Assembly (NCBI GenBank): GCA_047639325.1
Contig: JBLINN010000001.1
Location: 1 to 59,639, forward strand
DNA: 59,639 nt
From: Paracoccaceae bacterium
GTDB taxonomy: Bacteria; Pseudomonadota; Alphaproteobacteria; Rhodobacterales; Rhodobacteraceae
Reading direction: 5' to 3'
A program made the translations under genes and the position numbers. The notes beneath the pieces were generated by a model. The model was not told the origin of the DNA, searched no databases, and worked only from the letters and a program-made list of their open reading frames with translations. Of the stretch, positions 34,348 to 59,488 are shown piece after piece. Numbering within the stretch: the first letter of the stretch is position 1; each line of letters begins with the position of its first letter.

Positions 34348-34350
34348 AAA

Positions 34351-39765: not shown

Positions 39766-41163
39766 TCAGGTGCCGAATTTTCTGATCCCCGACGGCCCCG
39801 TTTCCAGATGTCCGGTTTTCCCCTGCCCCACCAGCGCCTCGGCCACGCGCTGCGCGGTGTCGCCCGCGCCGCTAAGACAGTTGGCGACCGAGACTCCTCG
39901 CAGAAAGTTGCCCGTGACAAACAGGCCGGGAACGCGGTTGGCTAGGTTTTCCAGCACGTCCACCCGGGCGGTATGCCCCAGTTCATATTGCGGCAGGCCC
40001 AGCGCCCAACGGCGGGCCCGCTGTATCACTGGCACGCCTTTGATCCCCAAAAGTTCGGCCAATTCGCGATGCACCTTGGCGATCAGCGTGGTGTCATCAA
40101 CCGTGGCCAGTTCCGGGTTACGCGCCCCGCCAGCATAGGCCGAAATCGCCACGTGTCCGTCGGGCGCGCGGCCTTGGTACATAGTGGACAGGAATTGCGC
40201 GCCCGAAATGATCCGGCTTGGATCCTTGGTGGACAAAAACCCCAGCCCATCCAGCGGATGCGCCACCTGATCGCGCCGATAGCCCAGGAATACCACGTTG
40301 ACCGGCGGGGCCATGATACTGCCCGCAGCCGTTGCCGCATCCATATCAAGCGGTTCCAGTAAACCGGCGGCCACATGCGGCTGCACCGCCAGCACCACGG
40401 CGCGGGCCTGGACCCTGCCCTGGCTGGTTTTCACGTCGAACCCTTGCGCGGTTTTGCCAATGCCCAGCACCACCACCCCGGTCTGCACCCGCGCGCCAAG
40501 TCGCTGCGCCAGACGTCCCGGAATGGTGCCGATCCCGCCCTGCCACGAATACAGATGCCGCCCCGGTTCGCTGCCTTTGCGCGCCTTCAGGATGCCCCGG
40601 ATGATCGACCCATGGGTCTGTTCCATCTCGGCTAGCCGGGCAAACGCGCCATTGATCGACAGCTTTCTGGAATCGCCCATAAACAGCCCCGCCGCCATCG
40701 GGTCGATGATCTTGTCGGCGAATTCCCGGCCAAACCGACGGGTGGTAAAGGCGTGAATGCTTTCTTCGGCGTCGTCGGTTTTGCGCGGCCGCAGCCCTTC
40801 CAGCAACAGCGACAGGCGGGCCTTTGGCGACAGGTAATTCGACAGGAAAAAACCCGCCGGATGAATGGAAATCCCGCTGAGCCGCCCCTGATCGCGCAGG
40901 TAACGCCGCCGGACATTGGGGCCAAGATCGGCGGCGCTGTCCAACAGGCCAAGCCCCGCAAGATGATCCACCGCACCCGGCACCGAGCCGTTGAACGTGG
41001 TTGGCCCGTGTTCCATCAGAAACCCGTCGATGCGTTCGGAAATCGCGTTACCGCCCGGCGTCACCTGACGCTCCAGCACCTGAACATCCAGGCCGCGCTG
41101 CATCAGCCCGTGCGCGGTTGCCAGCCCGGAAATGCCGCCGCCGATAACCACCACATCCCGCAT
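39766..41163 (-). CDS. HemY-type FAD-dependent protoporphyrinogen/coproporphyrinogen oxidase-like protein
   Basis: DVVVIGGGISGLATAHGL dinucleotide fold and collinear HemY-like blocks (...FLSTMYQGRAPDGHVAISAYAGGARN..., ...GLFVTGNFLRGVSVANCL). The ATG overlaps the upstream stop (TGATG). Confidence 0.7.
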   Translation of the reverse strand: MRDVVVIGGGISGLATAHGLMQRGLDVQVLERQVTPGGNAISERIDGFLMEHGPTTFNGSVPGAVDHLAGLGLLDSAADLGPNVRRRYLRDQGRLSGISIHPAGFFLSNYLSPKARLSLLLEGLRPRKTDDAEESIHAFTTRRFGREFADKIIDPMAAGLFMGDSRKLSINGAFARLAEMEQTHGSIIRGILKARKGSEPGRHLYSWQGGIGTIPGRLAQRLGARVQTGVVVLGIGKTAQGFDVKTSQGRVQARAVVLAVQPHVAAGLLEPLDMDAATAAGSIMAPPVNVVFLGYRRDQVAHPLDGLGFLSTKDPSRIISGAQFLSTMYQGRAPDGHVAISAYAGGARNPELATVDDTTLIAKVHRELAELLGIKGVPVIQRARRWALGLPQYELGHTARVDVLENLANRVPGLFVTGNFLRGVSVANCLSGAGDTAQRVAEALVGQGKTGHLETGPSGIRKFGT

Positions 41164-42446
41164 CAATCACCCCCCTGCATGGCGCGCACAAAGGCGGGTG
41201 GGCCTGCGTCGCCAAAGCGACGTTTGGCCAGCTCTGTCAGGTCATCGCGTGTCACTTCGGTTCGACCTTGGGCGCGCGCATGGTCCTCGGCGCGCCGCCG
41301 CACCATGCGGCGCACAAAACCGGGCACGCGGGCGACATGCGCCTCGGCGTCATCAGACCATCGCATCGCGCCCGCGTCGGGCATCATCGGCGTGATCACC
41401 GCGCCGCCACTGGGCTGATAGGTGCACAGGCTGTCCTCGCCCATCATGTTGCCATTGGCCGCCAGCGGACGGGCACGGCAGCCGCCGCACAGCTTTTGAT
41501 ATTCGCAAACCCCACAGCGCCCTTCCAGCTTGGGCGCGCGCAGCGCGTTCAGCACCGGGGCGTCGTTCCAGATGTCCTGAAACGACTGATCCTTTAGCGA
41601 CCCGGCAGAATTTCCCATGTAAGGGCATGGGGTTACGTCGCCATTGGGTGTCACCCGCGCATAGCGCGTCGCGGCAATACACCCGCCTGCATCATAGCCA
41701 TGGGCGGCTGTTATCGGCCAATCCGGGTCCATCTCGATGGCGATACGTTTAAAATGAGGCGCACATTTGGCCCGCACCATCAGGCGTTTTTCGTCCCGCG
41801 CCGCCGTGGCCACGCGGCGCAAAACCAGGTCGTATTTTTCTGCTGAAATGCCCGAATATTTCTCACCTCGTCCGGTGCAGACCATGAAAAACACGTTCAA
41901 CACCATCGCCCCCGCCTCGCGGGCAAAGGCGACCATATCGTCGACCTCATCCGCTGTTTCGTCGGTGGCCGAGAAATGGATTTGGAACGCCATTCCGGCA
42001 TCCTTGCAGGCATCAATTCCCGCCATGGTCCGCACCCAAGCGCCTTTCAGGCCGCGAAACGCGTCATGCACATCCCGGTCCAGCGAATCCACCGATATGC
42101 CCATGCCCGCCACCCCGGCGGCTTGCAGCGCTTTGACCCGCGCAGGCGTCAGCGACATACCGTTGGTGCCCACCACCACCATCAGCCCCAGCCCGTTGGC
42201 ATGTTCCGCCAGTTCCGGCAGATCCGGGCGCAAGGTTGGTTCGCCGCCAGTCAGCACCACCATCGCCTCGGGGCCGGTTTCAGCGATTTCGCCCAACACG
42301 CGTTTGATGTCATCGGTCGACAACTCGTCCTGCCCGCCGTCTTTCAAGTGGCGTGCGTCCAGATAGCAGTGGGCGCAGGCAAGGTTGCACCTTTCTGTCA
42401 GGTTCAGCGCCACAAGATAGGGGGCGTCTGCCTTGCCCTGGGGCAT
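41163..42446 (-). CDS. Radical-SAM/SPASM enzyme (NirJ/AhbC/AhbD-like) with a C-terminal PCP_red-like domain
   Basis: CNLACAHCY (CX3CX2C). SPASM-type Cys cluster ...GRCGVCEYQKLCGGCRARP... C-terminus WSDDAEAHVARVPGFVRRMVRRRAEDHARAQGRTEVT. Confidence 0.8.
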   Translation of the reverse strand: MPQGKADAPYLVALNLTERCNLACAHCYLDARHLKDGGQDELSTDDIKRVLGEIAETGPEAMVVLTGGEPTLRPDLPELAEHANGLGLMVVVGTNGMSLTPARVKALQAAGVAGMGISVDSLDRDVHDAFRGLKGAWVRTMAGIDACKDAGMAFQIHFSATDETADEVDDMVAFAREAGAMVLNVFFMVCTGRGEKYSGISAEKYDLVLRRVATAARDEKRLMVRAKCAPHFKRIAIEMDPDWPITAAHGYDAGGCIAATRYARVTPNGDVTPCPYMGNSAGSLKDQSFQDIWNDAPVLNALRAPKLEGRCGVCEYQKLCGGCRARPLAANGNMMGEDSLCTYQPSGGAVITPMMPDAGAMRWSDDAEAHVARVPGFVRRMVRRRAEDHARAQGRTEVTRDDLTELAKRRFGDAGPPAFVRAMQGGD

Positions 42447-44095
42447 CACTCTTTTCCCGGCTCAACCGGGCACATGGCCATGCGTGACGCGGCAAAAGCC
42501 TCGTCCTCGATCGTGCTATCCACCACGCTAAGCCCCCGGTCGCGGGCGAAATTCTCGATTGACGTCCGGACCTGATCTCGAAACGCTTCGGGCACTCGTT
42601 GCAGACGCGCCAGCGGGGCGGTGCGCCAGATGATTTCGGCCCTTTCGGCCCGGATCGCGGGTTCCAGTGCGGCCTCGGCCATGAAGGGTTCGATATGCAC
42701 CCGTTCCACCGTTTCCCCGGCGTCCCGGCGCGCGGATTTCTCGGCCCGCAGGCCGATGTTTTCGCGCACCTGTTCGTCGCTGATCGTGTCCAGCATGGCG
42801 CGCGCGTCTTCGGCCCATTCAAGCCGCTCAAACGTCTGCTCGACCGCGCCTTTGCCACTACCCCCGGGCATCATCTTGGACATGATATCCTGCACAAACC
42901 GCGTGGTGATAAACGTGTGCCCCTGCTTTTGCGCCGCCCGGATCACCCCGGTACGGGCGATGCCGCGAACAAAATCCGGGGCGCGGTTGATCATCGCTGT
43001 GGCCTCGTCCGACCACATGATAGTCTCTTCCGCGACCACGTCCGAGGGCGGGAAATGTTCGGCCTGACCGACCCAGACATGGCAACCCACCATGCGCAGC
43101 AGGTTTTCGGTATTGCCGCCGATATCCAGCCCATCATCCGCATGCACCCCGGTTTTACCGATCACTAACAGGCTGGCCTTGTGTTCATCCACGTATTTCT
43201 TGATCGCCTGATACGGTTTGCCTGCCACTAGCGCGCACACAATTTCGCTGCCTGCATCCTTGGCCACGGTTTGCGCCACGTTCAGATGCGCCTGATAGAT
43301 TTTGGCAATGCCGTCATCAATCAGCTCTTCGTGCAGCTGTTCCTGTTGCTTGAAGCGGAACACTTTGCCCGCCTCTTCGTCCAGAACGGTCGAGATTTTG
43401 TTGAAGGCAACATAATGATAAAACGGGTCATAGGCGGCCACAACATGCACCGGCACGTCCAGCTTTTTGCCGATATCCAGCGCCGTCACCAGCGCGCCAA
43501 AGGATTTGGGAGACCCATCCATACCAACCACAATTGGCCCATCACCAATGGAAAGGCGGCGATCCTTGGCGACAAACACATCCATATTGGCGCGCCGCAC
43601 CACCCGCTCGCACACCGTGCCAATGGTTGACCCGGCAACCGCCCCCAGCCCCAGCGCACCCATGAACAAAACGTCATGTTCGCCTGTGGCCATGGCCTGG
43701 GTCACGCAGGTATAGTTCTTGCCTTCGGGTGACAGGCGCTCAAAGCGTACATCGGCCTTTTTCGCCACAGCGGCAGCGGCGTCGTGATAGCTGTCGGAAA
43801 TCAGCCCCAGCCCCATGCCGATCAGGTCTTCGTGCACGTCGCGCTGCTTTTCCATCTCGCTTTCGCGCTGATATTGCTCTGGCAACCCGCCTTCCATCTG
43901 CCGAAACCGCTGATCGTGCAGCTTGGCGGCATAGGCGTGGATACCGGTGATGTGACCACTGGCCAGACGCACTGCTTGACGCATGGCGTTATTGGCGTAA
44001 TCGGACTGGTCCAGCGCCACCAATATCCGCGTCATAACTGCCGGAGCCGTGGCCGCCGCGTCCGTTGTTCCATCATCAATTGCCAGATTGGTCAT
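42446..44095 (-). CDS. Tandem universal-stress-protein (USP) domains fused to three PCP_red-like repeats
   Basis: Two USP folds (…VLFMGALGLGAVAGSTIGTVCERVVRRA…, …LLVIGKTGVHADDGLDIGGNTENLLRMV…). Then three repeats of the form xW..eA...l.r.P.FVR.....r...A...G...v. Confidence 0.6.
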   Translation of the reverse strand: MTNLAIDDGTTDAAATAPAVMTRILVALDQSDYANNAMRQAVRLASGHITGIHAYAAKLHDQRFRQMEGGLPEQYQRESEMEKQRDVHEDLIGMGLGLISDSYHDAAAAVAKKADVRFERLSPEGKNYTCVTQAMATGEHDVLFMGALGLGAVAGSTIGTVCERVVRRANMDVFVAKDRRLSIGDGPIVVGMDGSPKSFGALVTALDIGKKLDVPVHVVAAYDPFYHYVAFNKISTVLDEEAGKVFRFKQQEQLHEELIDDGIAKIYQAHLNVAQTVAKDAGSEIVCALVAGKPYQAIKKYVDEHKASLLVIGKTGVHADDGLDIGGNTENLLRMVGCHVWVGQAEHFPPSDVVAEETIMWSDEATAMINRAPDFVRGIARTGVIRAAQKQGHTFITTRFVQDIMSKMMPGGSGKGAVEQTFERLEWAEDARAMLDTISDEQVRENIGLRAEKSARRDAGETVERVHIEPFMAEAALEPAIRAERAEIIWRTAPLARLQRVPEAFRDQVRTSIENFARDRGLSVVDSTIEDEAFAASRMAMCPVEPGKE

Positions 44096-44101
44096 GTTCT
44101 C

Positions 44102-44971
44102 TTATCCATCTGTTGCACAGCGAAACCCGACGAATTCCGCGTAAGTGTTTGTATAGTCACACATTCTGTTGCTTGCGACGGTCATGTGGGGCCGCCCATT
44201 CCAGCTGTTGCCCTTGATATAGGCGCAGGGTTCGCCGGGGATGCTTGCGTCAGCCTGGTCCGGAGGCAGGCATATTTCCGGCAGCACGCCCCCATTGGCC
44301 GCCGTAAGTTCCGTCAAAAGCGCGCGCATTTCAGGCGTTGCCTGTTGGTCCAGAACCACGTTGTCGCGGCAGACACCGGCGCGCGCGGTGCGGGTATCTG
44401 CCACCCATTCGGAAACATTGCCCGCCAGGCCGCGCACGCCGTAGGGGCTGATATCATCCGCGTGATCCGTCACCGGAACTGGACCCGTGCCGGTCAAATG
44501 GGCGCGGGTCAGGTCGGCGTCATCGCCCCAGGGGTAAATCCGCCCATCCGTGCCACGCGCCGCCTTTTCCCATTCGACTTCGGTCGGCAAGCGTTTGCCT
44601 GCCCAGGCGCAAAAGCTGGTGGCATCGTCATGCAGAACCCCGGTGACCGGCTGATCAGGGTGGTTGAATTCCGGGTCATCGGCAAAGGCCGCCGAGGTGT
44701 GGCCGGTGGCGGCCGTAAACTTGGCGTATTGCGCGTTTGTCACTTCGAACCGGTCAATGGAAAACCCAGCGACGCTGTAGGGCATCGGGCCATAAAGCCC
44801 AGTGTAAGAAACATATCCCAAAGTGGCCTGCCCGGCGGGGATTTTCACCATGTCGCCGTGGGCAGAGGGCCAAACCCCCAATGCCGCCGCCCCAAAGGCG
44901 ACAGCCCCGGCACCAGCCACAGCCACCGCCACCGCCACCGCCGCGGATATGGCGATCAGGCGAATAGCCAA
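44102..44971 (-). CDS. FGE-sulfatase (SUMF1/NirV-like) domain protein, membrane-anchored
   Basis: FSIDRFEVTNAQYAKF, LPTEVEWEKAARG, GNVSEWV, KGNSW...VGFRCA. The Ala/Val-rich anchor is encoded by a GCCACC-type repeat. TTG start is uncertain. Confidence 0.7.
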   Translation of the reverse strand: MAIRLIAISAAVAVAVAVAGAGAVAFGAAALGVWPSAHGDMVKIPAGQATLGYVSYTGLYGPMPYSVAGFSIDRFEVTNAQYAKFTAATGHTSAAFADDPEFNHPDQPVTGVLHDDATSFCAWAGKRLPTEVEWEKAARGTDGRIYPWGDDADLTRAHLTGTGPVPVTDHADDISPYGVRGLAGNVSEWVADTRTARAGVCRDNVVLDQQATPEMRALLTELTAANGGVLPEICLPPDQADASIPGEPCAYIKGNSWNGRPHMTVASNRMCDYTNTYAEFVGFRCATDG

Positions 44972-45063
44972 TACCCCAGCAGCAACAAAACCACGGCCAC
45001 GTTGACCAGGGCACCCGCCAAAACAAACGCATCAAACGTATTGATTTTACGATGTTTCAGCAT
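44956..45063 (-). CDS. Possible 35-aa single-TM peptide
   Basis: MLKHRKINTFDAFVLAGALVNVAVVLLLLGYWLFA fills the gap between the cupredoxin-like and FGE-like genes. Below the ORF-track cutoff. Speculative. Confidence 0.2.
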   Translation of the reverse strand: MLKHRKINTFDAFVLAGALVNVAVVLLLLGYWLFA

Positions 45064-45086
45064 GGGCTACCCTTTGGGTCTGTTGC

Positions 45087-45827
45087 TTAGTAGGACAGGT
45101 CCTTGGTCACGGCGCCACCGGCATCGACGGTGATTTCACCGACCTCGACCTCGCCCAGGAACCCGTGCCACATCATCACTTCGTAGGTGCCCGCCGGGAT
45201 ACCATCGATCGAGAAACCGCCAGCCTCGTCCACCACCGAATAATAGGGGTTCTTGGCGACAAACACGAAGCTGTGCATGAAATCATGGGCGTCGCATTCG
45301 ACTTTCATGCCGTTGCCCCGGCGAAGTTTCACCTTTTTGGTGACCGTATCGCCCTTGCTGGGCTGCGATACATTCATCACCGTGCGACGCGCCTTGCCGA
45401 TCAGTTCGTAGGTATGGATGTTGTGCAGGGTCATGTCTGAATTATTCGCCGTCAGCTCGCCCCCATTGGCCATCACGCCCAAAACCGTCGAAAATTCACA
45501 GCCTTCCTGATCGATGGTCAGGTTCATTTGTTCCGCGTCAAAGGCCTTGCCTTCGCCAACCTCGTTCAGGAACACCACCGCGTTCATCAGCTTGCCGTCA
45601 CCGTTGATTTCCACAAACGGCACCTCGCGCGATCCCTCGCCGCAGATTTCCGGGTCTTTTGAAATGGTATAGCTGCGGGTGTCGGCCTCGGCAGCGCCGG
45701 CGGCCACGGTTCCGGCAAAGCTGCCACCATTGCTGACATCAACTTCTTTGTATCCCTTGGCGCTGGCCGTGGTGGCCAGACCAAGCAACGCCAGTGTCAT
45801 GGCGGATTTTGCAAGCGTATACTTCAT
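45087..45827 (-). CDS. Secreted cupredoxin-like protein with a C-terminal CarboxypepD_reg-like domain
   Basis: Signal peptide MKYTLAKSAMTLALLGLATTASA. Candidate type-1 Cu ligands are HNIH ... C-DA-H-DF-M, the amicyanin-type C-X2-H-X2-M spacing. C-terminal GGFSIDGIPAGTYEV. Confidence 0.5.
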   Translation of the reverse strand: MKYTLAKSAMTLALLGLATTASAKGYKEVDVSNGGSFAGTVAAGAAEADTRSYTISKDPEICGEGSREVPFVEINGDGKLMNAVVFLNEVGEGKAFDAEQMNLTIDQEGCEFSTVLGVMANGGELTANNSDMTLHNIHTYELIGKARRTVMNVSQPSKGDTVTKKVKLRRGNGMKVECDAHDFMHSFVFVAKNPYYSVVDEAGGFSIDGIPAGTYEVMMWHGFLGEVEVGEITVDAGGAVTKDLSY

Positions 45828-45854
45828 AGGATTTCCTTTCATTATGGGGGCCGT

Positions 45855-48065: not shown

Positions 48066-48118
48066 CTGACTCACTCATGGTTTGATGCGCTAAACTATCA
48101 ACCCCGTCAGGCACGGCG

Positions 48119-48132
48119 TTGACCCAAGTCAA
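48119..48132 (-). promoter_or_regulatory. FNR/CRP-family (FnrL/Dnr-type) box upstream of the HEAT-repeat gene
   Basis: TTGACCCAAGTCAA is a perfect TTGAC-N4-GTCAA palindrome, centred about 60 nt upstream of ATG 48065. Confidence 0.55.
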
Positions 48133-48137
48133 GGGCA

Positions 48138-48173
48138 GATCACCGGCCAGCGGATTCGCTCTGGCCGGTGATC
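48138..48173 (-). terminator. 13-bp perfect inverted repeat after the Mo-subunit gene
   Basis: GATCACCGGCCAG-N10-CTGGCCGGTGATC lies between stop 48219 and the FNR-type box. Weak T-tract, so it may be an attenuator or processing site. Confidence 0.4.
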
Positions 48174-48218
48174 ATTTCGACCGTTCCGGGGCGCCCAAAC
48201 CGGACGCCCCGGCATTTA

Positions 48219-51491: not shown

Positions 51492-51511
51492 ATTTTTTCC
51501 TTTTCCAATGC

Positions 51512-52654
51512 TCACTCGGAAGCCATGGCTTCGTAGGGTGGCAAGACAGGCGGTTCGACTTCCAGTTCGTCACCCGAAAAGGCTTCGAGGAAGGCAACCA
51601 GTTGGCCCACTTCGTCGTCGTCCAAACCAAGCGGTTTGATCAGGTCGGATTTGGTTGATGACATGGTGCCGTCGGTAAAGTCGTTTTCACCGCCACCGGC
51701 GTTATAGAACTGAACCACTTCTTCGAGATCCCAGAACGCGCCATTGTGCATATACGGTGCCGTGTAGGCGGTATAGCGCAGGGGCGGGGTGCGGAATTTC
51801 CCCATGTGGTCCTTTTCCTTGGTGCGGAAATAAAGGCCCGGATCATCCTTCAGAACCCGGTACATTTCCTGGGTCACGCCCTTGGCAAAGATTTCATAGC
51901 GAAAGGTCACCTGCGCCAGTCCATCTTCTTCCCAACGCTCTGCGGGTGGCACGCCGATATTATAGTAATTCTCGTCCGTGGCCTGCGCGCCGTTGTGGCA
52001 CTGAATACAGCCCGCCTTGCCGTTAAACAGCTCCATCCCGGCGATCTGTTCTTCGGTCAGCGCGCTGGTCTCGCCGCCCAGATATTTATCAACCGGGGTG
52101 TCGTTGACGATCAGCGTGCGTTCAAACGCGGCAATCGCCGCCCATGCGTCGCCGATCAGCGGCCATTCGGTGCCGAACACATCGTTAAAGCGCGCCACGT
52201 ATTCCGGGATGAACGCCATCCGGGTTTCCATCACGTCGTTCTCGCCGTTCCCGGCAACCGCACCCTTGGCAGCAGACGGCGCCTGCTTTTCAAGCGAGGC
52301 AGCGGACCCGGCCCAAAACAACTGGCCCAGATAGGCCGAGTTGATCACCGACTGGCTGTTGCGCCAGTGAACGGTGCCCGGATAGCCGCGTGACAGGCTG
52401 TCGCCAAACCCCCAGCCCTGATCGGGCTCGTGGCAGGTGACACAGGCGGTCGATGCGTCGCCACCGATGCGCGGATCCCAGAACAGGATTTTGCCCAGTT
52501 CAACCTTGGCATCCGTCATCTTGTTATCCAGCGGAATGGGCGGATCGCCCAACGGGGCCAGGGCTGGATATTCCTGCGCCTGAGCCATCGCTGCCGAGGC
52601 GGCGATTGCCGCAACACCGGCCAGCAGAGTAAGTTTGTTTGTCATTGGTTTCAT
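51512..52654 (-). CDS. Di-haem cytochrome c peroxidase (CCP/MauG family), copy 2
   Basis: Signal peptide. CVTCH and CIQCH. FRTPPLRYTAYTAPYMHNG. Confidence 0.9.
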   Translation of the reverse strand: MKPMTNKLTLLAGVAAIAASAAMAQAQEYPALAPLGDPPIPLDNKMTDAKVELGKILFWDPRIGGDASTACVTCHEPDQGWGFGDSLSRGYPGTVHWRNSQSVINSAYLGQLFWAGSAASLEKQAPSAAKGAVAGNGENDVMETRMAFIPEYVARFNDVFGTEWPLIGDAWAAIAAFERTLIVNDTPVDKYLGGETSALTEEQIAGMELFNGKAGCIQCHNGAQATDENYYNIGVPPAERWEEDGLAQVTFRYEIFAKGVTQEMYRVLKDDPGLYFRTKEKDHMGKFRTPPLRYTAYTAPYMHNGAFWDLEEVVQFYNAGGGENDFTDGTMSSTKSDLIKPLGLDDDEVGQLVAFLEAFSGDELEVEPPVLPPYEAMASE

Positions 52655-52669
52655 CTTTCCTCTCCCGTC

Positions 52670-53791
52670 CTAGTTCTGAACTTCGCGCCAGTTTTCGATG
52701 GTCGGATAGTTGGTTGAAATAGGATCGGGCCAGACGTGCTCAGGACCGGTCAACGGATCACCAGACAGCGCCTCAAGGAAGGCAACAATGTCTTTCTGTT
52801 CAACAAATGTCAGGCCAAGCGGCTTGATGCGTTCGTCTTTGTTAGCGTCATCGCCACCACCGGCGTTGTAAAAGGCCACAACCTCGAACAGCGAACCAAA
52901 CATGCCGTTGTGCATGTAGGGCGCGGTGTAAGACAGCTCGCGCAGGGTGGGCGTATTGAACGACCCAATGTCGGACCCATCTGCCGGATGGCGGATAATC
53001 TGCGCACCCACGTCGCGGCGGATGTTCATGTAATTCTCGATGCCCATGAACTGCGCAAAGGCCGCAAAAGTCATGTGGCGCATCGGGTCGGACCAGATGT
53101 CGGGGTTCTCTGGCGTGCCGATGTTATAGGCCTGATCGTCAGTCAGACGCCGGCCATTGTGGCACGAGATACACCCGGCTTTGCCTTCAAAAAGCTCCTG
53201 ACCGCGCTGTGCGCCGTCAGACATGGTGCCTACGTCAAAGGGCGCACCGCGCGATGTCAGCGTTGCCAGATATTCCGGGATCGCCTTGCGGATTGACCCG
53301 TTCGACGGCTCGCCATATCCGGCCTCTTCGAACATCTTCACATAAATAGGGTCTTGCTTGACGCGTTCTTGCATCAGGCGCATGTCCATGTTCATCAGGT
53401 AATCTTCGGTGATCATTTCGCGGGTCACGTCGTTCAGGTTCGTGCCCAGACGCCCGTCGTGCATCCAGTTGGCGGCCAGCGCGGTGTTGATCAGGGTTGG
53501 CGTGTTGCGGAACCCTTTGGAACCCGGGTAGGCCAGCGACAGCGCCAAACCATCGGAATAGCCGTTTTCCGGCTGGTGGCAGCTGGCGCAGGATATCGCC
53601 GCGTCGCCCGAAAGCCGCTGGTCAAAGAACAGGCGCTGTCCCAGCGCGGCCTTGGCCTGGTTGATTTCCGGTGCCACGATCGGCCCCAGCGGTACTGTGT
53701 CCGCAAAGACGGTTCCGGCCAGCAAGGTTGCCCCCATCAGCGAGGCCCCCAATGTCAGCGCAAATCCGCGTTTGGATCGAGATATCGTCAT
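52670..53791 (-). CDS. Di-haem cytochrome c peroxidase (CCP/MauG family), copy 1
   Basis: Signal peptide MTISRSKRGFALTLGASLMGATLLAGTVFA. CASCH and CISCH. FNTPTLRELSYTAPYMHNG. Start trimmed to ATG 53791 after AAGGGAA. Confidence 0.9.
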   Translation of the reverse strand: MTISRSKRGFALTLGASLMGATLLAGTVFADTVPLGPIVAPEINQAKAALGQRLFFDQRLSGDAAISCASCHQPENGYSDGLALSLAYPGSKGFRNTPTLINTALAANWMHDGRLGTNLNDVTREMITEDYLMNMDMRLMQERVKQDPIYVKMFEEAGYGEPSNGSIRKAIPEYLATLTSRGAPFDVGTMSDGAQRGQELFEGKAGCISCHNGRRLTDDQAYNIGTPENPDIWSDPMRHMTFAAFAQFMGIENYMNIRRDVGAQIIRHPADGSDIGSFNTPTLRELSYTAPYMHNGMFGSLFEVVAFYNAGGGDDANKDERIKPLGLTFVEQKDIVAFLEALSGDPLTGPEHVWPDPISTNYPTIENWREVQN

Positions 53792-53887
53792 TGATTTCCC
53801 TTTCTTGTTAAAAATGTCTCCGGCTCGGAAATCGCGAAACGGATTGGTGTCCTGCGGGCAAAGTCGCAACCCCACCCCCCAAATTCA

Positions 53888-53901
53888 TTGACGGGCGTCA
53901 A
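53888..53901 (-). promoter_or_regulatory. FNR/CRP-family box upstream of the peroxidase-Rieske-Mo unit
   Basis: TTGACGGGCGTCAA is a perfect TTGAC-N4-GTCAA palindrome, about 103 nt upstream of ATG 53791. Confidence 0.55.
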
Positions 53902-53956
53902 GATTCCGCGATTTAACAAATTTTTACATCTGCGCCGGGGTCGGGCGGGCAGGATG

Positions 53957-56233
53957 TCAGGCGGTGAACCGTCTGCGGGCACGCCAGCCGATCAGCAGAA
54001 AAACCAAACCCGCCAGCAATCCCGCCACAACCGCTGTTGCGATGGTTTTTGTCGGGTTCTCCACCGGCTCCAGCAGGATCCAGTACCAGGCGGTAAAGCT
54101 TTGGCGCAGGCCGATCTCGCCATTCAGCCCATCCCAATTGGCGAAAGCGATGGGGGTATAGACCCCTTCGTCAAATTGCAGATCCTGCGGCGTGCCAGTG
54201 TCCAGCGCGCGGGTAAACACCACCTGCCAGCGGCCATCTTTCCAAGTGCCTGTGGCCCTTAAATCTGAGCTGTCGGCGCGCGGCGTAGGCGCCTTTTCCT
54301 GCCCCTTGGCATCACTGATCACCACGGTTGCGGGCAGTTCCGGATCCTGCGAGGGCGCCGTCCAGTGCCAGATATTCACCGAGTTCTTGCGATCACCCTG
54401 GCGGAAATAGGGTTTCTCGGCCGTGCCAGTCAGCGCCGCCGGTATCTGCACCGCAATCGCGTCGCGTGTGGCGGTGACATCGTCCAGCGCATATTGCTGT
54501 TCCAGCGCGGATCCCGGCACCGAATAGGTGCGGTCATCCACATCAACGCGCAGCGCGATATCATCGGCATTATACAGCGCCCGCACCGTCACCATCTCGT
54601 TCAGGGAAAAGAACAACCGCGGTTCCTTGATAACGTTGGGCGACAGGCGGAAGGTCATCGCCGGGGCACCATCCCAGGCAGGATCATCGCCATCGCTGGG
54701 CAGATCGCCATCGACACGCACCGCGCGGATCACGCTGTCGCCCTTGCTAAGCGGCGTCGCATTATTGCGCAGGGTCATCACGTAATTCGCCACCGCCCAG
54801 CGGTCTTCCAGGCTCATATTGGTTGAATGTTCCGGCATCGGCGTGCTGGGAATCCCCGCTGACAGGCGCTGAAACACGTCCTTAGCGTCCACCGACCAGC
54901 GCCAAGTTTCAGGCTGGGTCAGGTTGCGCGGCCAGATGCGGTTTTCCCAATCATCCGCCAGCCGCTTGCCCGACATGATGTTGCCGCGCCCTGCATTGCC
55001 GTGGCATTCGCGGCAGGCCTTTTCGAATTGCACCCGACCATTGGCCAGCGCCGCATCGGTCACTTCGGGCGGGGTGCCCAATTCAATCGCCGTCAGGCCC
55101 AGATCTTCGGCGGTTTCTTCCTCCCAATATCCGAAGGTTTTGATCTTATAGATCAGCGCATCAATTTCAGCGTCACTCAGGATGGTTTTCCAGCCTGGCA
55201 TCGCGGTGCCCGGCAGCCCTTCGCGGATGGTTTCGCGCAGGTCGGCATCAGTGGGGAATTCGCTGTCGGAATCGGTGGTCTTGTATTTGAACAAACCCAG
55301 GGTGAAATCACGCGGCGCCGGATACATCCGCTCTGCCGCAATCCCCAGCCCGTCGCCGTCATCGCCGTGGCATTGCGAACAGCGCTTTGTATAGATCGCA
55401 TCAACCGCGCCTTCGTCCAGCGCAGCGCCTTCGGCAGCGGTGTCAGAACCCTCTTCCGCCCCGCCGGTGCTTTCCTCCAGCTCCCACGATCGCGGCTCAA
55501 ACCCGGTATAGTCATATAGGAACGAGATGATTTTCCACACCTCATGCTCTTGCAGCATATCCTCCCACACCGGCATCGCCGACGCCCAAGGCGTACCTTC
55601 CACCGGCAGGCCCGGGCCGCCTTTGGTAATACGCCAGAACAGGAACGCCTCTTGCAGCTGGGCGATGGTGCCCACGTCTTGAAAGTTGATCGGGCGCGGG
55701 GTGAACGCCCCGGCGAAATGCCCGGCCCCGTCCAGCAGGTCGCCGTGGCAGTAAACGCAGTTCTCGTAATACAGCCCCGCCCCCTCGGCGACGATCTCGC
55801 GGTATTCGTCCGAGGCTTCGTCAAATTCCGCGCGGAACGGGTTTTCCAGCGTCAAAAGGTTAAAGGTCTTGCCATAGGCCTTCAGACTGGAGGGCGGCGC
55901 TGGGTGGACGGTGCGCAATTCAGCAGGCGACACAATCGACGGCTTGACGATATCATAGGTCAGCGCGCCCACGCCGGCGACCGTGGCCACAAGGGCAACC
56001 GCGCGCAAGACCTTGCGCTGGGGCGAGCCGAACAGCGACACCAGCGGTGCAAAGAACCGCCCAGCAGTGGCATTGTCAAAGGTTACCACCAGCAAAACGC
56101 CGACGGTGCAGATGATCATGTACTGGATCAGCAAGGACGCGGGCAAAGGCGGGTTCAGGATGTGGGCGAACACCGCGTAAAGACCACCAAGAACCACCAG
56201 GGCCAGCGTCAGGGGATGTTTCAGGAATGCCAT
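53957..56233 (-). CDS. Membrane-anchored trihaem cytochrome c fused to an EB_dh/DOMON-like haem-binding domain
   Basis: About three N-terminal TM helices. CVYCH, CSQCH, CRECH. The C-terminal part (DDPAWDGAPAMTF...GTWKDGRWQVVFTRALDTG...PIAFANWDG...) resembles ethylbenzene-dehydrogenase gamma-type domains. Final TM anchor. Confidence 0.75.
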   Translation of the reverse strand: MAFLKHPLTLALVVLGGLYAVFAHILNPPLPASLLIQYMIICTVGVLLVVTFDNATAGRFFAPLVSLFGSPQRKVLRAVALVATVAGVGALTYDIVKPSIVSPAELRTVHPAPPSSLKAYGKTFNLLTLENPFRAEFDEASDEYREIVAEGAGLYYENCVYCHGDLLDGAGHFAGAFTPRPINFQDVGTIAQLQEAFLFWRITKGGPGLPVEGTPWASAMPVWEDMLQEHEVWKIISFLYDYTGFEPRSWELEESTGGAEEGSDTAAEGAALDEGAVDAIYTKRCSQCHGDDGDGLGIAAERMYPAPRDFTLGLFKYKTTDSDSEFPTDADLRETIREGLPGTAMPGWKTILSDAEIDALIYKIKTFGYWEEETAEDLGLTAIELGTPPEVTDAALANGRVQFEKACRECHGNAGRGNIMSGKRLADDWENRIWPRNLTQPETWRWSVDAKDVFQRLSAGIPSTPMPEHSTNMSLEDRWAVANYVMTLRNNATPLSKGDSVIRAVRVDGDLPSDGDDPAWDGAPAMTFRLSPNVIKEPRLFFSLNEMVTVRALYNADDIALRVDVDDRTYSVPGSALEQQYALDDVTATRDAIAVQIPAALTGTAEKPYFRQGDRKNSVNIWHWTAPSQDPELPATVVISDAKGQEKAPTPRADSSDLRATGTWKDGRWQVVFTRALDTGTPQDLQFDEGVYTPIAFANWDGLNGEIGLRQSFTAWYWILLEPVENPTKTIATAVVAGLLAGLVFLLIGWRARRRFTA

Positions 56234-56242
56234 AATCGTCCC

Positions 56243-57379
56243 CTATTCCGGCAGGTTCATCAGATAGTCGAGCAGCAGGGTCATTTCGCCCTCGGTCATG
56301 TCATCACCAAAATAGTCGGGCATCAGGTCGGCCTCGTAACCGTCGGCGATCTCGGCATTCGGGTCGATGATCGACGCCTTCAACGCCTCGCGGTTCATGC
56401 GCGCGCCAATACCGTTCAGCTTTGGCCCCATGTCGGCCTCGCTGCCTTGCAGATCATGGCACCCGGCACAGCCGTATTCGTCGATTACCCCGGCGGCGTC
56501 GGTGATCGGACCGCTGTCTTCAGGTTCTTTGCTGGGGTCCGGTTCCGGCAGGGTCAGCAAGTGATCAACGATCAGCAGCAATTCACTGGCGTGCATGTCC
56601 CCACCAAAGCTGTCGGGCATCAGGCCTTCGTCATAGCCGGCCGCGATCTCGGCATTTGGGTCCAGAATCGCCCCCATCAATTCACTGCGGCTCATCCGGT
56701 TGGCAATGCCCCCCAAAGCCGGGCCAAGATCGGCGCCGCTGTCGTTCAGATCGTGACAGGCAGCACAGGAAAACTTGTCCAGTGCGGCGATCACGTCGGT
56801 TTCCGGGGCCTCGATCATGCCATCACCGATGGCCGGGGCCGTATCCACCGGCGTGTCTTCGGCCGAGGGCAGCGGCACGGTTGGCCCCATCCCGGCGCGG
56901 TCCTGCAAAAAGGCGATGACAGCGTTGATTTCAACGGCGCTCAGTTCAATTGGCGCCGCATCCACCACCGGCATCGGGCTTACGCTGTCATTGGTGCCCT
57001 TTTTGCCAAACCCGGCGACCACATAGGCTGATGGGGCCTGCATCGACTCGCGCAGATAACCCTCGACCGCTTTTGGCCCTTCGCCCCCCGCCGCAACGCC
57101 GGAATACCCCGCATCGGCCAGCCGTTCGGGGAAGGTCGCGGCCAGGTCCATTTCCAGCGTATCAGGTGCGCGGCCCATACCATTGTGACACAGCGTACAA
57201 GTCCCCTTGCCGGAAAACAGCCCCTCGCCCAGGGTGATCATGCCCGCCATGTCCAGCCCTTCGGTCGAGACTTCGATAGGTTCGGACAGGTCCGGTTCAA
57301 CCTGTGGCAGGATATGCGCAAAAACCGCGTAGAACCCCAGCAGGACAAGGCTGAAAGTGATGACGCGCAGGAAGGTCAT
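56243..57379 (-). CDS. Membrane-anchored trihaem cytochrome c
   Basis: N-terminal TM. CTLCH, CAACH, CAGCH. Haem domains 2 and 3 are obvious internal duplicates. Confidence 0.8.
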   Translation of the reverse strand: MTFLRVITFSLVLLGFYAVFAHILPQVEPDLSEPIEVSTEGLDMAGMITLGEGLFSGKGTCTLCHNGMGRAPDTLEMDLAATFPERLADAGYSGVAAGGEGPKAVEGYLRESMQAPSAYVVAGFGKKGTNDSVSPMPVVDAAPIELSAVEINAVIAFLQDRAGMGPTVPLPSAEDTPVDTAPAIGDGMIEAPETDVIAALDKFSCAACHDLNDSGADLGPALGGIANRMSRSELMGAILDPNAEIAAGYDEGLMPDSFGGDMHASELLLIVDHLLTLPEPDPSKEPEDSGPITDAAGVIDEYGCAGCHDLQGSEADMGPKLNGIGARMNREALKASIIDPNAEIADGYEADLMPDYFGDDMTEGEMTLLLDYLMNLPE

Positions 57380-59130
57380 GATGACAGCTCCGCACCTTCT
57401 TGCTTGGTCTGGCCGAGGCGCGACAGCCAGAACACAAACACCATCACCGCCATAAAGGCCAAGGTGATACCGGTGATCGTATTGCCCGCATCCCCCAGCG
57501 TGGGGATGTAATTCTCGGGCGAATTATCCTTCATCACCGTGTAGACATGCCAGTTGGTGCGCAGGGACGACCGGATATAACCCATCAGCCCCATCAGCCA
57601 GGTAAACGCCACCGGCAGCACAAACAGCGCATATTGCGACCGCTCGGTCATACGGCCCCAATGCACCTTTTCCGACGTGGCCCCGCGCAGCATGAACACG
57701 TCAATAATCACCGACCCGATGATGATGCTTAGCGTGGTGATCACCTGCGGCACCGAGGCGCCGACTTTGTAAACCGTGGGTGTGATATAGCCGTAAATCC
57801 CGGCGCCCACGATATTGGCGATGCCCACGACATACAGCGCCACAACCACCATATTGGCGGATTTGGCCCACGACACCACGGGGATACGGGACGACCGGTA
57901 GAACATCTGGAACGACAGGAAGGTGAACACCAGCATCAGGTTCACAGCGGTATTCTTGGCCGGCATAATCCCCAACGGCCCAAGGATTTTATGATGCGTG
58001 CCGCCCAGGTTCTGGATCTCGGCGGTGGTCAGGATCAGCGTATGCGGCGTGACCCACACCAGAAACCCGGCAACAATCACCACAGCGATATATTTGACGT
58101 ATTTGGCATATTGCGCCCCGCGATCCGTGCGCATCAGGCCGGACCACAGATAGTAATTCGCGGCCAGCATAATCGTCCCGATCAGCACCGCCTGAATGAT
58201 GAACAACCACGCCAGAATGCCCCCCATGGCGGTGATGCCCATCTGCTGGCTATAGGCGTAAATCTCGGCCATCAGCCAGTATCCGGCAAAGGGCAACGGC
58301 AGGAACCCCAGAATGGCGATAAAGTTGGACGTATAACCCATCCAATCGTAATGCGCCTTTTTCGCAGGGTCCTTTTCCGCCAGGAACATATAGGCGGCAT
58401 AGCCCCCCACAATGGCCCCGCCATAGGCGATATTGGCCAAGAACCGGTGCAGATTCAGCGGGTTCCACAGCGGGTTGCGCGTCGCCTCCCACACGGTGCC
58501 GGTGATCGCCCCGTCGGGGGCAATCCCCGAGGGCGACATCATGAAGCTGGTCCAGGCATTGGCCACAAACATCAACGTCAGGCCAACGGTATTAAGCACA
58601 AGGCCAATTGACATGTGGTAATATTTGCGATTGCCCCGCCGCAGCGCGTCCCACGAATAAAAGTAGATATACAGCGTGACGCTTTCCAGCCCGAACAGCG
58701 CCGCATAGATCAGCATCTGACCACGGAACACCTTGATCAGATAGCCCATCAGATGCGGGTAAAACACCAGCAGCGTCAGCAACAGTCCCCCGCCCACAAG
58801 CGCGGTTAGCGAATAGGCGGCCATGGTGATCTTCATGAACTCCCGCGCCATCGTGTCAAACCGGTCATCGCCGGTCACCACGCTGATGAATTCGGTGGAT
58901 ATGGCGAACAGCGGCACCGCCAGCACAAAGGCCGCCAGAAACAGATGCATCTGCGCCATCGACCAGGCCAGGGTGCGGGCCGAGATGCCAGCAATCACCG
59001 GATAATCCATCCGCGACGGCTTGGGCGCGCCTTCCAGCGCGACGGCAGCGTCAGACGACGCGGCGGCCAGATCGGGCAGAACAAGGCTGGCGAATGCGGC
59101 GGTGATGGCGATCAGATGCGCGGTTTTCAT
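57376..59130 (-). CDS. Cytochrome bd-like protein (CydA superfamily, no Q-loop, no CydB partner)
   Basis: CydA-like blocks: AQMHLFLAAF (His19-like), LFGLESVTLY (Glu-like), FVANAWTSFMMSPSG (compare ANGWMQNP), LHRFLANIAYGGAIVGGYAAYMFLAEKD (His186 region). About 14 hydrophobic helices. ATGA overlap with the next gene. Confidence 0.7.
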   Translation of the reverse strand: MKTAHLIAITAAFASLVLPDLAAASSDAAVALEGAPKPSRMDYPVIAGISARTLAWSMAQMHLFLAAFVLAVPLFAISTEFISVVTGDDRFDTMAREFMKITMAAYSLTALVGGGLLLTLLVFYPHLMGYLIKVFRGQMLIYAALFGLESVTLYIYFYSWDALRRGNRKYYHMSIGLVLNTVGLTLMFVANAWTSFMMSPSGIAPDGAITGTVWEATRNPLWNPLNLHRFLANIAYGGAIVGGYAAYMFLAEKDPAKKAHYDWMGYTSNFIAILGFLPLPFAGYWLMAEIYAYSQQMGITAMGGILAWLFIIQAVLIGTIMLAANYYLWSGLMRTDRGAQYAKYVKYIAVVIVAGFLVWVTPHTLILTTAEIQNLGGTHHKILGPLGIMPAKNTAVNLMLVFTFLSFQMFYRSSRIPVVSWAKSANMVVVALYVVGIANIVGAGIYGYITPTVYKVGASVPQVITTLSIIIGSVIIDVFMLRGATSEKVHWGRMTERSQYALFVLPVAFTWLMGLMGYIRSSLRTNWHVYTVMKDNSPENYIPTLGDAGNTITGITLAFMAVMVFVFWLSRLGQTKQEGAELSS

Positions 59131-59139
59131 GTCACGCCC

Positions 59140-59268
59140 CTATTGCGGCATCAGATCAGCGCCGACAGGCAGACCCTGCGCTTGCATGATCGACTTATCC
59201 ATTAAGTAGAAAAACGCCGCCCAAACGACCAACGCCCCCACAAAAACCACCAAACTGCGTCCTGTCAT
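59140..59268 (-). CDS. Possible 42-aa single-TM peptide
   Basis: MTGRSLVVFVGALVVWAAFFYLMDKSIMQAQGLPVGADLMPQ. Its stop is 9 nt before the bd-like ATG. Below the ORF-track cutoff. Confidence 0.3.
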   Translation of the reverse strand: MTGRSLVVFVGALVVWAAFFYLMDKSIMQAQGLPVGADLMPQ

Positions 59269-59288
59269 CCTGCCGTCCCAGCCAATTT

Positions 59289-59411
59289 CTAGTGAACCGA
59301 GATCACGCCGTGATCAAAGATCAGCAACCACCAGAAGAAATAAATCATCGCGACCGCAGTCGCGGCGAAGACCAGCTTGCCAAGGGTTGTGCTTTGTTTG
59401 CCATCTGCCAT
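59289..59411 (-). CDS. Possible 40-aa single-TM peptide, first gene of the island
   Basis: MADGKQSTTLGKLVFAATAVAMIYFFWWLLIFDHGVISVH, preceded by GAGGCAGGG. Below the ORF-track cutoff. Confidence 0.3.
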   Translation of the reverse strand: MADGKQSTTLGKLVFAATAVAMIYFFWWLLIFDHGVISVH

Positions 59412-59474
59412 TTCAGCCCTGCCTCGACATGCCGTTTCAGATCTGGAAACGATCACGTTCTGCAATTCATGTAA

Positions 59475-59488
59475 TTGACGGACGTCAA
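59475..59488 (-). promoter_or_regulatory. FNR/CRP-family box at the head of the island
   Basis: TTGACGGACGTCAA is a perfect TTGAC-N4-GTCAA palindrome, centred about 70 nt upstream of ATG 59411. Confidence 0.55.

Follow-up and report, generated by a model that had tools for sequence, protein, structure and literature searches.

Iodate reductase (idr) gene islands have been described in Pseudomonas sp. SCT as well as in Denitromonas sp. IR-12 (PMC8692401, PMC8801600), and two di-haem peroxidase genes lying directly upstream of idrB and idrA serve to tell idr loci from those of arsenite oxidase, aio (PMC8692401). The accessory genes published for idr comprise a two-component system, moaA and a cytochrome c551, and conservation of the genes surrounding idrABP1P2 is described as poor. 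Here we analyse a window of 59,639 nucleotides (nt), positions 1–59,639 of the forward strand of contig JBLINN010000001.1 from a Paracoccaceae bacterium (GCA_047639325.1), in which a predicted idr core and a HEAT-repeat gene are embedded among the genes of a putative OR-N2-type member of the cytochrome bd superfamily. The core has the same gene order and tight spacing as in the published islands, but it is flanked by the OR-N2 set and by HEAT-repeat, copper-site and haem genes, is accompanied by FNR-type boxes, and carries no marks of mobility within the window.

Two lines of earlier work frame the physiology of such a locus. Aerobic, idr-bearing marine Alphaproteobacteria reduce iodate only when O2 is limited and do not grow anaerobically on it, and the physiology of these abundant “aerobic” carriers has been stated to be unclear (PMC11445184). 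An alphaproteobacterial idrABP1P2 cluster, taken from the metagenome-assembled genome (MAG) of an oxygen-minimum-zone bacterium, confers iodate reduction on E. coli (PMC13455634), and one published model has O2 and H2O2 arise as intermediates that are subsequently respired (summarised in PMC8692401).

The OR-N2 subfamily has been described separately, as proteins of about 14 helices with no quinol site, often without a second CydA-like subunit and with an unknown electron donor, whose operons usually include an EbdC homologue along with several cytochromes c (Murali, Gennis and Hemp, bioRxiv 10.1101/2021.01.16.426971). It was named for its prevalence in Nitrospirota, and the paper makes no link to a molybdenum (Mo) enzyme, to iodate, or to radical SAM, USP or copper-site genes. 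The perchlorate island pcrABCD-cld (as cited in PMC8692401) offers an analogy only: it too joins a respiratory oxyanion reductase, of the dimethyl sulfoxide reductase family, to genes for handling a reactive or oxygenic intermediate and for cofactors, whereas our window has no cld homologue, its candidate oxidant handler is a membrane-bound bd-like complex and not a dismutase, and its Mo enzyme belongs to a different clade.

An earlier note on this DNA had divided the locus into a bd-like module (i), a Mo enzyme module (ii) and an accessory module (iii), and knew of no described Aio, Arx or Idr locus that included modules (i) and (iii). This agrees with the searchable idr literature, which names no genes beyond idrABP1P2 and the three accessories listed above; nor does the searchable literature connect iodate reduction with cytochrome bd-type proteins or describe a radical SAM enzyme with a PCP_red tail, such as the one encoded here. 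The idr core, the OR-N2 family, AhbD-like enzymes and HemY were each known already, and what is new is an extended locus for iodate reduction that is fused with the gene set of an OR-N2 oxidase.

Results

Gene organization

Every real gene in the open reading frame (ORF) listing from position 39766 to the end of the window lies on the minus strand, giving an island (39766–59639) of at least 17 closely spaced genes in three units; the genes described below are on this strand unless stated otherwise. With the likely true starts placed at 53791 for the first peroxidase gene, 51491 for idrB and 48065 for the HEAT-repeat gene, intergenic distances run from −16 to +23 nt, except for two gaps of 165 and 153 nt, both of which hold a palindrome. 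The tight packing described in the earlier note is upheld. The overlaps it had pointed out, ATGA at 57376–57379 and TGATG at 42444–42448 and 41161–41165, agree with the ORF coordinates, and domain searches reproduced its domain assignments almost exactly. Its island of 14–16 genes at 39766–59488 was sound as a same-strand set and too small in extent, since a gene of 35 amino acids (aa) had been overlooked and the island continues beyond that right edge.

The iodate reductase core

Four genes make up the core. The first two encode di-haem proteins, one of the CCP/MauG family (52670–53791; CCP_MauG 126 bits), which is idrP2 by position, and one that is CCP/MbnH-like (51512–52654; CCP_MauG 129 bits), which is idrP1 by position; each has two CXXCH motifs. 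They are followed by idrB (50910–51491), for a Rieske [2Fe-2S] small subunit that carries an SRRKFL twin-arginine motif, and would by that motif be exported through the twin-arginine translocation (Tat) pathway, together with CxH...CxxH ligands, and by idrA (48219–50897), for an Aio/Idr-type molybdopterin subunit with Rieske_3, Molybdopterin and Molydop_binding matches and an N-terminal 3Fe-4S domain in which the C26-x2-C29-x3-C33 motif is present. The idrP-idrP-idrB-idrA order is that of the published iodate reductase core, with which module (ii) had been equated, and the two peroxidase genes and the Rieske gene recur in all 64 related loci with enough upstream sequence. By gene order and sequence motifs, the Mo enzyme set is the idr iodate reductase core.

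The closest solved relatives of IdrA are nonetheless the AioA arsenite oxidases (301 bits; PDB 4aay, 1g8k), and AioAB has the same two-subunit architecture and cofactor motifs as IdrAB. IdrA passes the NCBIfam arsenite oxidase large-subunit model TIGR02693 (429 bits against a cut-off of 359) and IdrB passes TIGR02694 (118 bits against 96). Evidently these two models do not separate Idr from Aio. The differences from AioAB lie elsewhere: the window has the peroxidase genes, a scan of the larger ORFs elsewhere in it turned up neither aioXSR nor ars genes, and the substrate site is altered. We take the residues of that site in AioA to be His195, Glu203, Arg419 and His423 (A. faecalis numbering), of which three are kept in the window protein as His197, Arg434 and His438 and the fourth, Glu203, is replaced by Ser205. 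The surrounding motif FHDTPSDVxST, with Ser in place of Glu203, is invariant in 12 members of the clade.

Homologues of IdrA with 75–95% identity are widespread in marine Alphaproteobacteria, and among the best 120 and best 80 matches listed (at least 75% identity) none carried the name of Pseudomonas SCT, Denitromonas or Roseovarius azorensis, the sources of experimentally tested IdrA proteins. Databases name the Mo subunits of this clade “arsenate reductase (azurin) large subunit” or “arsenite oxidase”, which looks like systematic misnaming.

The bd-like module

The unit ahead of the core begins, within the part that is complete in the window, with two single-helix membrane peptides, sp1 (40 aa; 59289–59411) and sp2 (42 aa; 59140–59268), each recognised as an ORF with a hydrophobic segment. 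Identity is 47–77% for sp1 in loci with the full gene order and 40–85% for sp2 in relatives; sp1 is likely a small subunit of the bd-like complex. Next comes a CydA-like protein of 584 aa (57376–59130), with some 12–14 helices by hydropathy, an approximate count, and a match to Pfam Cyt_bd_oxida_I (52.9 bits) that spans only profile positions 3–251 of 418.

The residues H62, Y142, E149, Y156, Y158, H172, H228, M389, N393, S521 and W527 of this protein fit the published OR-N2 register (H99, Y183, E190, Y197, Y199, H213, H269, M430/N434, S563 and W569) when mapped by spacing, with one 4-residue offset, rather than by alignment to the reference sequence. These signature residues are at least 95% conserved in 38 CydA-like orthologues. 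The protein departs from canonical CydAB in having no Q-loop, there being no long hydrophilic stretch between H228 and M389, and in placing Tyr142 at the position of E. coli E99, with E107 kept as E149; neither a CydB gene nor a Cyt_bd_oxida_II match was found in the island. The His equivalent to E. coli His19, a ligand of the O2-reducing haem, is retained. Beyond the residues expected to bind haem, five further His residues (H172, H260, H363, H380 and H528) and many Tyr and Trp residues are likewise at least 95% conserved in the 38 orthologues, so that the protein could accommodate an additional site for a metal or cofactor.

Two membrane-anchored trihaem cytochromes c complete the unit. The first, of 378 aa (56243–57379; three CXXCH motifs, an N-terminal helix and Cytochrom_C matches), is encoded by a gene that shares 4 nt with the stop of the cydA-like gene, and the second, of 758 aa (53957–56233; three CXXCH motifs, helices at both ends), also carries an EbdC-like haem b domain (EB_dh, 76 bits). 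Both have the N-terminal anchor motif YAVFAHIL in common, with a His within the membrane helix.

The same signature residues, the lack of a quinol site and the company of several cytochromes c and an EbdC homologue are what has been published for OR-N2, and on these features we assign the bd-like module to the cytochrome bd superfamily as a member of OR-N2 type. The content given for module (i) in the earlier note, a CydA-only protein with two trihaem cytochromes and an EB_dh domain, was accurate; the module is not new in itself, the subfamily having already been published.

FNR-type boxes

The perfect palindrome TTGACNNNNGTCAA, of the form TTGAC-N4-GTCAA, occurs exactly three times in the 59.6 kb (at 59475, 53888 and 48119), against a chance expectation of 0.03 (shuffle mean; 0 of 100 shuffles reached three), and one copy heads each of the three units. 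Box 1 (TTGACGGACGTCAA; 59475–59488) stands about 70 nt upstream of the first small peptide gene, box 2 (TTGACGGGCGTCAA; 53888–53901) about 100 nt upstream of the first peroxidase gene and box 3 (TTGACCCAAGTCAA; 48119–48132) about 60 nt upstream of the HEAT-repeat gene; the sites are palindromic and are given without strand. Measured to the first ATG of each unit, the distances are 60–103 nt, and both this placement and the sequence are in keeping with boxes of an FNR regulon (TTGAT/C-N4-A/GTCAA).

Relatives keep these sites. Box 1 is found at the equivalent position in 11 of the 16 loci that hold the first small peptide gene, box 2 in 27 of 74 scorable loci, mostly ones with the window's gene order, and box 3 in 17 loci; all three positions are kept in loci of the Rhodobacteraceae type. 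With three exact boxes here and the same three positions in relatives, the island is rightly called FNR-box-headed, as it had been in the earlier note. A candidate regulator appears in two relatives (loci are numbered with the prefix L): in Profundibacter amoris (L085, 7294–9574) and in L089 (7249–9550), the set is immediately preceded by a divergent gene for an FNR-type regulator, accompanied by one for a ferrochelatase. The regulator has a Cys cluster near its N terminus, a further Cys in its middle part and the recognition helix ETVSR. The window ends short of this position. Terminator and promoter scans of the window gave no excess over shuffles.

Conservation and arrangement in relatives

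A scan of one genome per species yielded 407 relatives of IdrA, of which the best 80 loci were analysed; presence calls by tblastn depend on coverage thresholds, and contig ends conceal genes. The full collinear order was found in at least nine genomes (L001, L002, L004, L012, L013, L053, L063, L070 and L080), distributed over Rhodobacterales, Sneathiellales, Hyphomicrobiales and unclassified Alphaproteobacteria, and the complete chromosome of the cultured Profundibacter amoris BAR1 (CP032125, near 317–340 kb) carries the set as far as the examined locus extends. In L014 and L036 the bd-like unit is inverted and placed after hemY. A second form has idr, the HEAT-repeat gene and the copper-site protein gene followed by an OR-N2 set that is 35–45% identical and holds extra cytochromes, with a PAS-BTAD regulator upstream. 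A third, in Roseibium and Pseudovibrio, consists of idr and the HEAT-repeat gene only, with an FNR/Crp regulator, an azurin-like protein and molybdenum cofactor genes.

When the count is confined to the 39 species-level loci with at least 9 kb on each side, the OR-N2 set lies beside idr in 26, in at least three arrangements: seven have the full order, two the inverted OR-N2 unit and 17 an OR-N2 set downstream; the other 13 have idr and the HEAT-repeat gene only. Three more OR-N2 homologues on long contigs all lie beside island genes. In L088 and L089 the neighbour is idr; in L087 the neighbours are the genes for the FGE, USP, radical SAM and HemY proteins, and idr, if present, is outside the examined stretch. 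The group of USP, radical SAM and HemY genes occurs in still other places: it is divergent from the idr regulator in L083, comes after a second OR-N2 copy in L081, where a ferrochelatase and Tn3 genes are also present, and precedes a two-component system and the OR-N2 set in L087. At 58% IdrA identity, L091 still carries CCP, Rieske, IdrA, HEAT, USP, radical SAM, CydA-like, cytochrome c, cytochrome c/EB_dh and PCP_red genes in one string.

Because the linkage persists through so much rearrangement and divergence, we argue for a functional tie between the modules. Their sequence identities also correlate from module to module (rho 0.8–0.95), which adds weak support, as such a correlation is expected from shared phylogeny alone. 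The earlier note had allowed that the modules might never co-occur in other genomes; the collinear set in at least nine genomes of several orders, and the continued linkage of the rearranged forms, show that they do, and recurrence across alphaproteobacterial orders upholds its central claim of one conserved, co-oriented respiratory set around an Idr-type Mo enzyme.

Accessory genes

Three of the genes downstream of the core, for a copper-site protein, a USP-PCP_red protein and a radical SAM enzyme, also occur in loci that lack idr. The copper-site protein (45087–45842) is predicted to be periplasmic, with a type-1-copper-like His/Cys/His/Met site, identified from invariant residues, and a C-terminal Ig-like domain. 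H140, C183-x2-H186-x2-M189, C67 and C115 are invariant in 53 orthologues and 12 distant oxidase-linked homologues, so that both the His/Cys/His/Met set and the C-x2-H-x2-M spacing are held down to 23% identity. In hhalign the site residues fall in register with amicyanin H53, C92, H95 and M98, a weak match (E = 0.046, probability 1%). The protein thus resembles amicyanin/plastocyanin-type cupredoxins (PDB 1aac) in having HN(I/V)H and C-x2-H-x2-M blocks in the amicyanin register, but differs in its extra C-terminal Ig-like domain and its conserved Cys pair, and the profile match is insignificant. Pfam and PDB searches returned no cupredoxin match, only one to the C-terminal beta-sandwich of the Ig-like part, and the single-sequence structure model, at a pLDDT of 34, is too low for fold assignment.

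The USP-PCP_red protein (42446–44095; Usp 99 bits, PCP_red 68 bits) has two USP domains and, by eye, three PCP_red repeats. It is followed by an AhbD/NirJ2-like radical SAM/SPASM enzyme (41163–42446) with Radical_SAM and SPASM (37.5 bits) matches, a C-terminal PCP_red domain and the motif CNLACAHC (CX3CX2C). The enzyme scores 299 bits against NirJ2 and 285 bits against AhbD, both below the cut-off of 500, and domain searches found no AhbA-, AhbB- or AhbC-like genes in the island. The last gene (39766–41163) encodes an FAD-dependent protoporphyrinogen/coproporphyrinogen oxidase of HemY type (TIGR00562, 259 bits against a cut-off of 98), whose best solved relative is the protoporphyrinogen oxidase of Myxococcus (2ivd, 220 bits). 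A similar grouping of AhbD with HemY (CgoX) and ferrochelatase is known from some bacteria that use the coproporphyrin pathway (PMC13564367, PMC10452713); the window enzyme differs in scoring below the cut-off, in its PCP_red tail and USP-PCP_red partner, and in lying in Proteobacteria amid terminal-oxidase operons with no AhbA, AhbB or AhbC. No ferrochelatase match was found in the window, and the site used by relatives lies past its end; a ferrochelatase gene flanks the set in L085, L089, L017 and L081.

The family of radical SAM enzymes with a PCP_red tail has 718 representatives at E ≤ 1e-30, and we examined the best 80 of more than 568 loci. Its named members come from Nitrosomonadales, Deltaproteobacteria, Dehalococcoidia and Binatia MAGs. 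In a metagenome sample of 17 loci with at least 2.5 kb on each side, the USP-PCP_red gene adjoins the radical SAM gene in 13, as it does in L090–L092, and a terminal oxidase gene is present in 11 (CydA-like in seven, COX1 in five, one locus having both); the copper-site protein and an Mrp/NUBPL-type Fe-S ATPase are each found in nine, and IdrA in only one. Nine control loci with a plain AhbD-like gene held none of the oxidase, USP-PCP_red, copper-site or other counted genes (0/9).

Individual loci illustrate the pattern. L105 (4495–16766) reads USP, radical SAM, CydA-like, cytochrome c, cytochrome c, cytochrome c/EB_dh, copper-site protein, COX2 and COX1; L125 (5312–15208) reads Mrp, PCP_red, USP, radical SAM, CydA-like, cytochrome c, an unassigned ORF and cytochrome c/EB_dh; and L096 (1–10341) reads COX1, CtaA, CtaB, COX3, COX3, copper-site protein, USP, radical SAM and Mrp. 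Since the copper-site, USP-PCP_red and radical SAM genes are linked to oxidases where there is no idr, they belong with module (i), and their gene neighbourhoods mark them as terminal-oxidase accessory genes, not Idr accessory genes. The earlier view of module (iii) as a cofactor-tailoring cassette for Idr has to be given up: these genes accompany OR-N2 and haem-copper oxidases without idr, and a cassette serving Idr is ruled out by the occurrence of the same genes with oxidases in loci that lack it. In the window, idr and the HEAT-repeat gene stand between the last cytochrome and the copper-site protein of an OR-N2 “supermodule” that is contiguous elsewhere, and the window is best read as idr and a HEAT-repeat gene set into that oxidase supermodule.

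The HEAT-repeat gene behaves differently from the rest of module (iii), being the only one of its genes to follow idrA everywhere. It encodes a cytoplasmic protein of 736 aa (45855–48065; HEAT_2 144 bits) with no signal peptide or membrane helix, and comes after idrA in all 67 loci with enough downstream sequence, as well as in the divergent L091. Two smaller features separate the copper-site gene from the USP-PCP_red gene. The apparent 115-nt gap between the copper-site gene and the FGE-like gene is filled by sp3, a conserved membrane peptide of 35 aa (MLKHRKINTFDAFVLAGALVNVAVVLLLLGYWLFA; 44956–45063), which 19 loci have in the equivalent place, among them loci that lack the FGE-like gene, and which is annotated as a gene in L086. 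The FGE-like gene itself (44102–44971; FGE-sulfatase 142 bits), for a protein of FGE-sulfatase fold with an N-terminal hydrophobic segment, is optional and is found in only some of the full-order loci.

Edges of the island and surroundings

At the right edge the window cuts off up118 (59532–59639), a conserved membrane protein of about 100–118 aa of which only the 3′ end is present, its translation ending in AAKLIFLVPQQEDEALDAYMARLRQQISQACGVAF before the stop. In relatives it is the first gene of the set: homologues, of 100 aa in Profundibacter, immediately precede the small peptide genes in 13 loci, whereas in L014 and L036 they come after hemY. At the left edge, a hybrid PAS histidine kinase gene on the plus strand (37306–39756) converges on hemY, the two stops lying at 39756 and 39766 with 9 nt between them, as had been noted earlier; the kinase is a neighbour of the set in L002 too and, in part, in L003 and L004. 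In L001, L013 and L086 moeA recurs after hemY, followed in L086 by DUF2478, and the window has no moeA there.

That mobility is unsupported, as previously judged, holds within the window. The search for tRNA genes found none in the window, the GC content of the island (0.596) shows no anomaly beside that of the rest of the window (0.579), megablast of the 19.7 kb against PLSDB gave no plasmid match, and no recombinase was seen among the window ORFs scanned; flanking repeats were not searched for, and the right edge of the island is outside the window. An Rfam search of the window matched no family. Transposase genes do flank related sets in two loci. In L081 (12645–17694) a Tn3-family transposase, a resolvase and a 415-aa ferrochelatase come directly after the second OR-N2 set and its copy of the USP, radical SAM and HemY genes, and L087 (16224–16544) has a fragment of a transposase after its OR-N2 set.

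The remainder of the window looks ordinary, with GMC oxidoreductases, a Hint-domain protein, proteins of the DUF5928 and DUF6638 families and a series of flagellar genes; the regions on which this judgement is based (7143–8048, 15937–17514, 18532–19884 and 30566–36455) hold nothing related to arsenic or iodine.

Discussion

We consider the locus best explained, with modest confidence, as a chromosomal respiratory set of a marine Rhodobacteraceae bacterium, under low-oxygen control, in which idr and the HEAT-repeat gene stand amid an OR-N2 set and work with it. From the gene content, residue signatures, conservation and linkage observed, we infer activities, a direction of electron flow and a mode of regulation as follows. 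At low O2, an FNR-type regulator would activate the three units through the TTGAC-N4-GTCAA boxes, and electrons from the cytochrome c pool would pass to periplasmic IdrAB, where iodate would be reduced. The peroxidase-like proteins and the OR-N2 complex, fed by cytochrome c, would reduce the oxidants that accompany iodate reduction, whether residual O2 or the H2O2 or O2 derived from hypoiodous acid, and the OR-N2 membrane complex would conserve energy in doing so. The radical SAM, USP and HemY proteins, joined by ferrochelatase in relatives, would synthesise or insert the haem needed at about 14 sites under O2 scarcity. Such a mechanism agrees with the confinement of iodate reduction to O2-limited conditions and with the lack of anaerobic growth on iodate (PMC11445184).

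Several points weigh against this reading. O2 reduction by OR-N2 is itself an assumption, the family being known only from bioinformatics, and HemY, which would here have to act at scarce O2, normally requires it. The iodate reductase activity of the window IdrA is deduced from gene context and related carriers, and the functions given to the accessory genes are predictions from sequence. Thirteen of the 39 species-level loci have idr and the HEAT-repeat gene with no OR-N2 set within 10 kb, and OR-N2 sets with the same accessory genes occur without idr. Loci with a downstream OR-N2 set mostly lack FNR boxes and have the PAS-BTAD regulator instead, so that FNR co-regulation is lineage-specific, and in L087 and L088 a PAS kinase is found with a sigma-54 regulator. 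Finally, because idrABP1P2 alone suffices in E. coli (PMC13455634), the OR-N2 set is not needed for catalysis.

Co-regulation and co-inheritance form the main rival, because one third of idr loci lack OR-N2, idrABP1P2 works alone and OR-N2 exists without idr. The two would then be independent low-oxygen systems, brought side by side by a shared regulator and by inheritance or transfer as a block, with no chemical or electron coupling between them. A separate box for each unit fits this account, as do the OR-N2 sets beside haem-copper oxidases in other lineages, which would be the usual clustering of respiratory genes. It fits less well with a linkage that outlasts at least four rearrangements and a fall to 58% IdrA identity, with the insertion of the window's idr inside the OR-N2 set, between cytochrome and copper-site protein, rather than merely beside it, and with the finding that all three further OR-N2 homologues on long contigs have island genes as neighbours (idr for two of them, accessory genes for the other). 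We therefore regard independence as rather unlikely, and as the alternative that deserves most attention.

Compatible with the low-oxygen respiratory set that we favour is a more tentative and rather unlikely idea about the oxidase cofactor: that the products of the radical SAM, USP-PCP_red and hemY genes synthesise or insert a modified haem required by terminal oxidases, for example the high-spin chlorin-type haem of bd-like enzymes, rather than simply topping up haem b. In L091, L105 and L125 the pair of USP and radical SAM genes immediately precedes the cydA-like gene, as it does in L108, L111 and L139 judging from tblastn match positions; in L096 it lies in a haem-copper oxidase operon beside CtaB and CtaA, the synthases of haem o and haem a. 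The radical SAM enzyme scores below the AhbD and NirJ2 equivalog cut-offs, its extra domain is otherwise known from the tetrapyrrole enzyme BchB, and plain AhbD-like genes are without such a neighbourhood. The idea draws on gene neighbourhood and sequence, however, and a deltaproteobacterial MAG has the pair with no oxidase, where the radical SAM enzyme could simply be that organism's AhbD; HemY and ferrochelatase, moreover, are ordinary late enzymes of haem b synthesis.

A bolder version of the coupled reading would tie iodate reduction mechanistically to an OR-N2 cytochrome c oxidase that respires an oxidant derived from iodate (O2, H2O2 or one at the level of hypoiodous acid), in marine Alphaproteobacteria and at least one distant lineage, and would make the copper-site, USP-PCP_red and radical SAM trio a maturation system for the oxidase. 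In this full form we think it unlikely to be correct.

Two other accounts are less likely than co-regulation and co-inheritance. In one, the CydA-like protein and the multihaem cytochromes would serve as an electron input, passing electrons from quinol or the bc1 complex to IdrAB and the peroxidases, with no role as a terminal reductase. Both cytochromes are membrane-anchored and face the periplasm, EB_dh is the electron-transfer subunit of other periplasmic Mo enzymes, and some published idr islands have a dedicated cytochrome c551, all of which would suit such a role. The CydA-like protein, on the other hand, lacks the quinol-binding loop, keeps the His19 equivalent that would bind the O2-reducing haem as well as one of the two proton-channel Glu residues, and in other lineages the same module lies beside haem-copper oxidase genes with no Mo enzyme, which makes an input role very unlikely. 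Least probable of all is that the Mo enzyme acts on another substrate, as an arsenite oxidase or a reductase of bromate, chlorate or selenate: its score above the arsenite oxidase cut-off, the corresponding database names, the three retained AioA residues and the indirect basis of its iodate activity would allow this, but the peroxidase genes upstream of idrB and idrA in 64 of 64 loci, the invariant Ser at the Glu203 position in 12 clade sequences, the lack of aioXSR or ars genes among the ORFs scanned, and the reduction of iodate by alphaproteobacterial idr carriers and by the cloned alphaproteobacterial cluster leave it little room.

Atmospheric iodine chemistry and the loss of ozone are fed by the conversion of iodate to iodide in the ocean. 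The work offers three leads on this process, namely an O2-sensing FNR switch, a bd-like complex of oxidase type wired to cytochrome c, and a universal HEAT-repeat partner of IdrA, and Profundibacter amoris provides a cultured, fully sequenced carrier in which they can be tested. It also flags the systematic naming of such Mo subunits as arsenite oxidases in databases, and opens a genetic route into the bd superfamily's uncharacterised OR-N2 branch. The oxidase-linked set formed by a radical SAM enzyme with a PCP_red tail, a USP-PCP_red protein and a protein with the His-Cys-His-Met site is widespread and undescribed, and merits a study of its own.

Were the OR-N2 complex to respire an oxidant derived from iodate, the OR-N2 family would gain its first physiological role and the dispute over an oxygen-like intermediate in iodate respiration would be settled, and the trio would amount to a system, not recognised before, that matures haem or metal sites in terminal oxidases of two superfamilies. 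The arrangement described here is common to many ocean bacteria, and hints at how “aerobic” bacteria may convert iodate to iodide at low O2.

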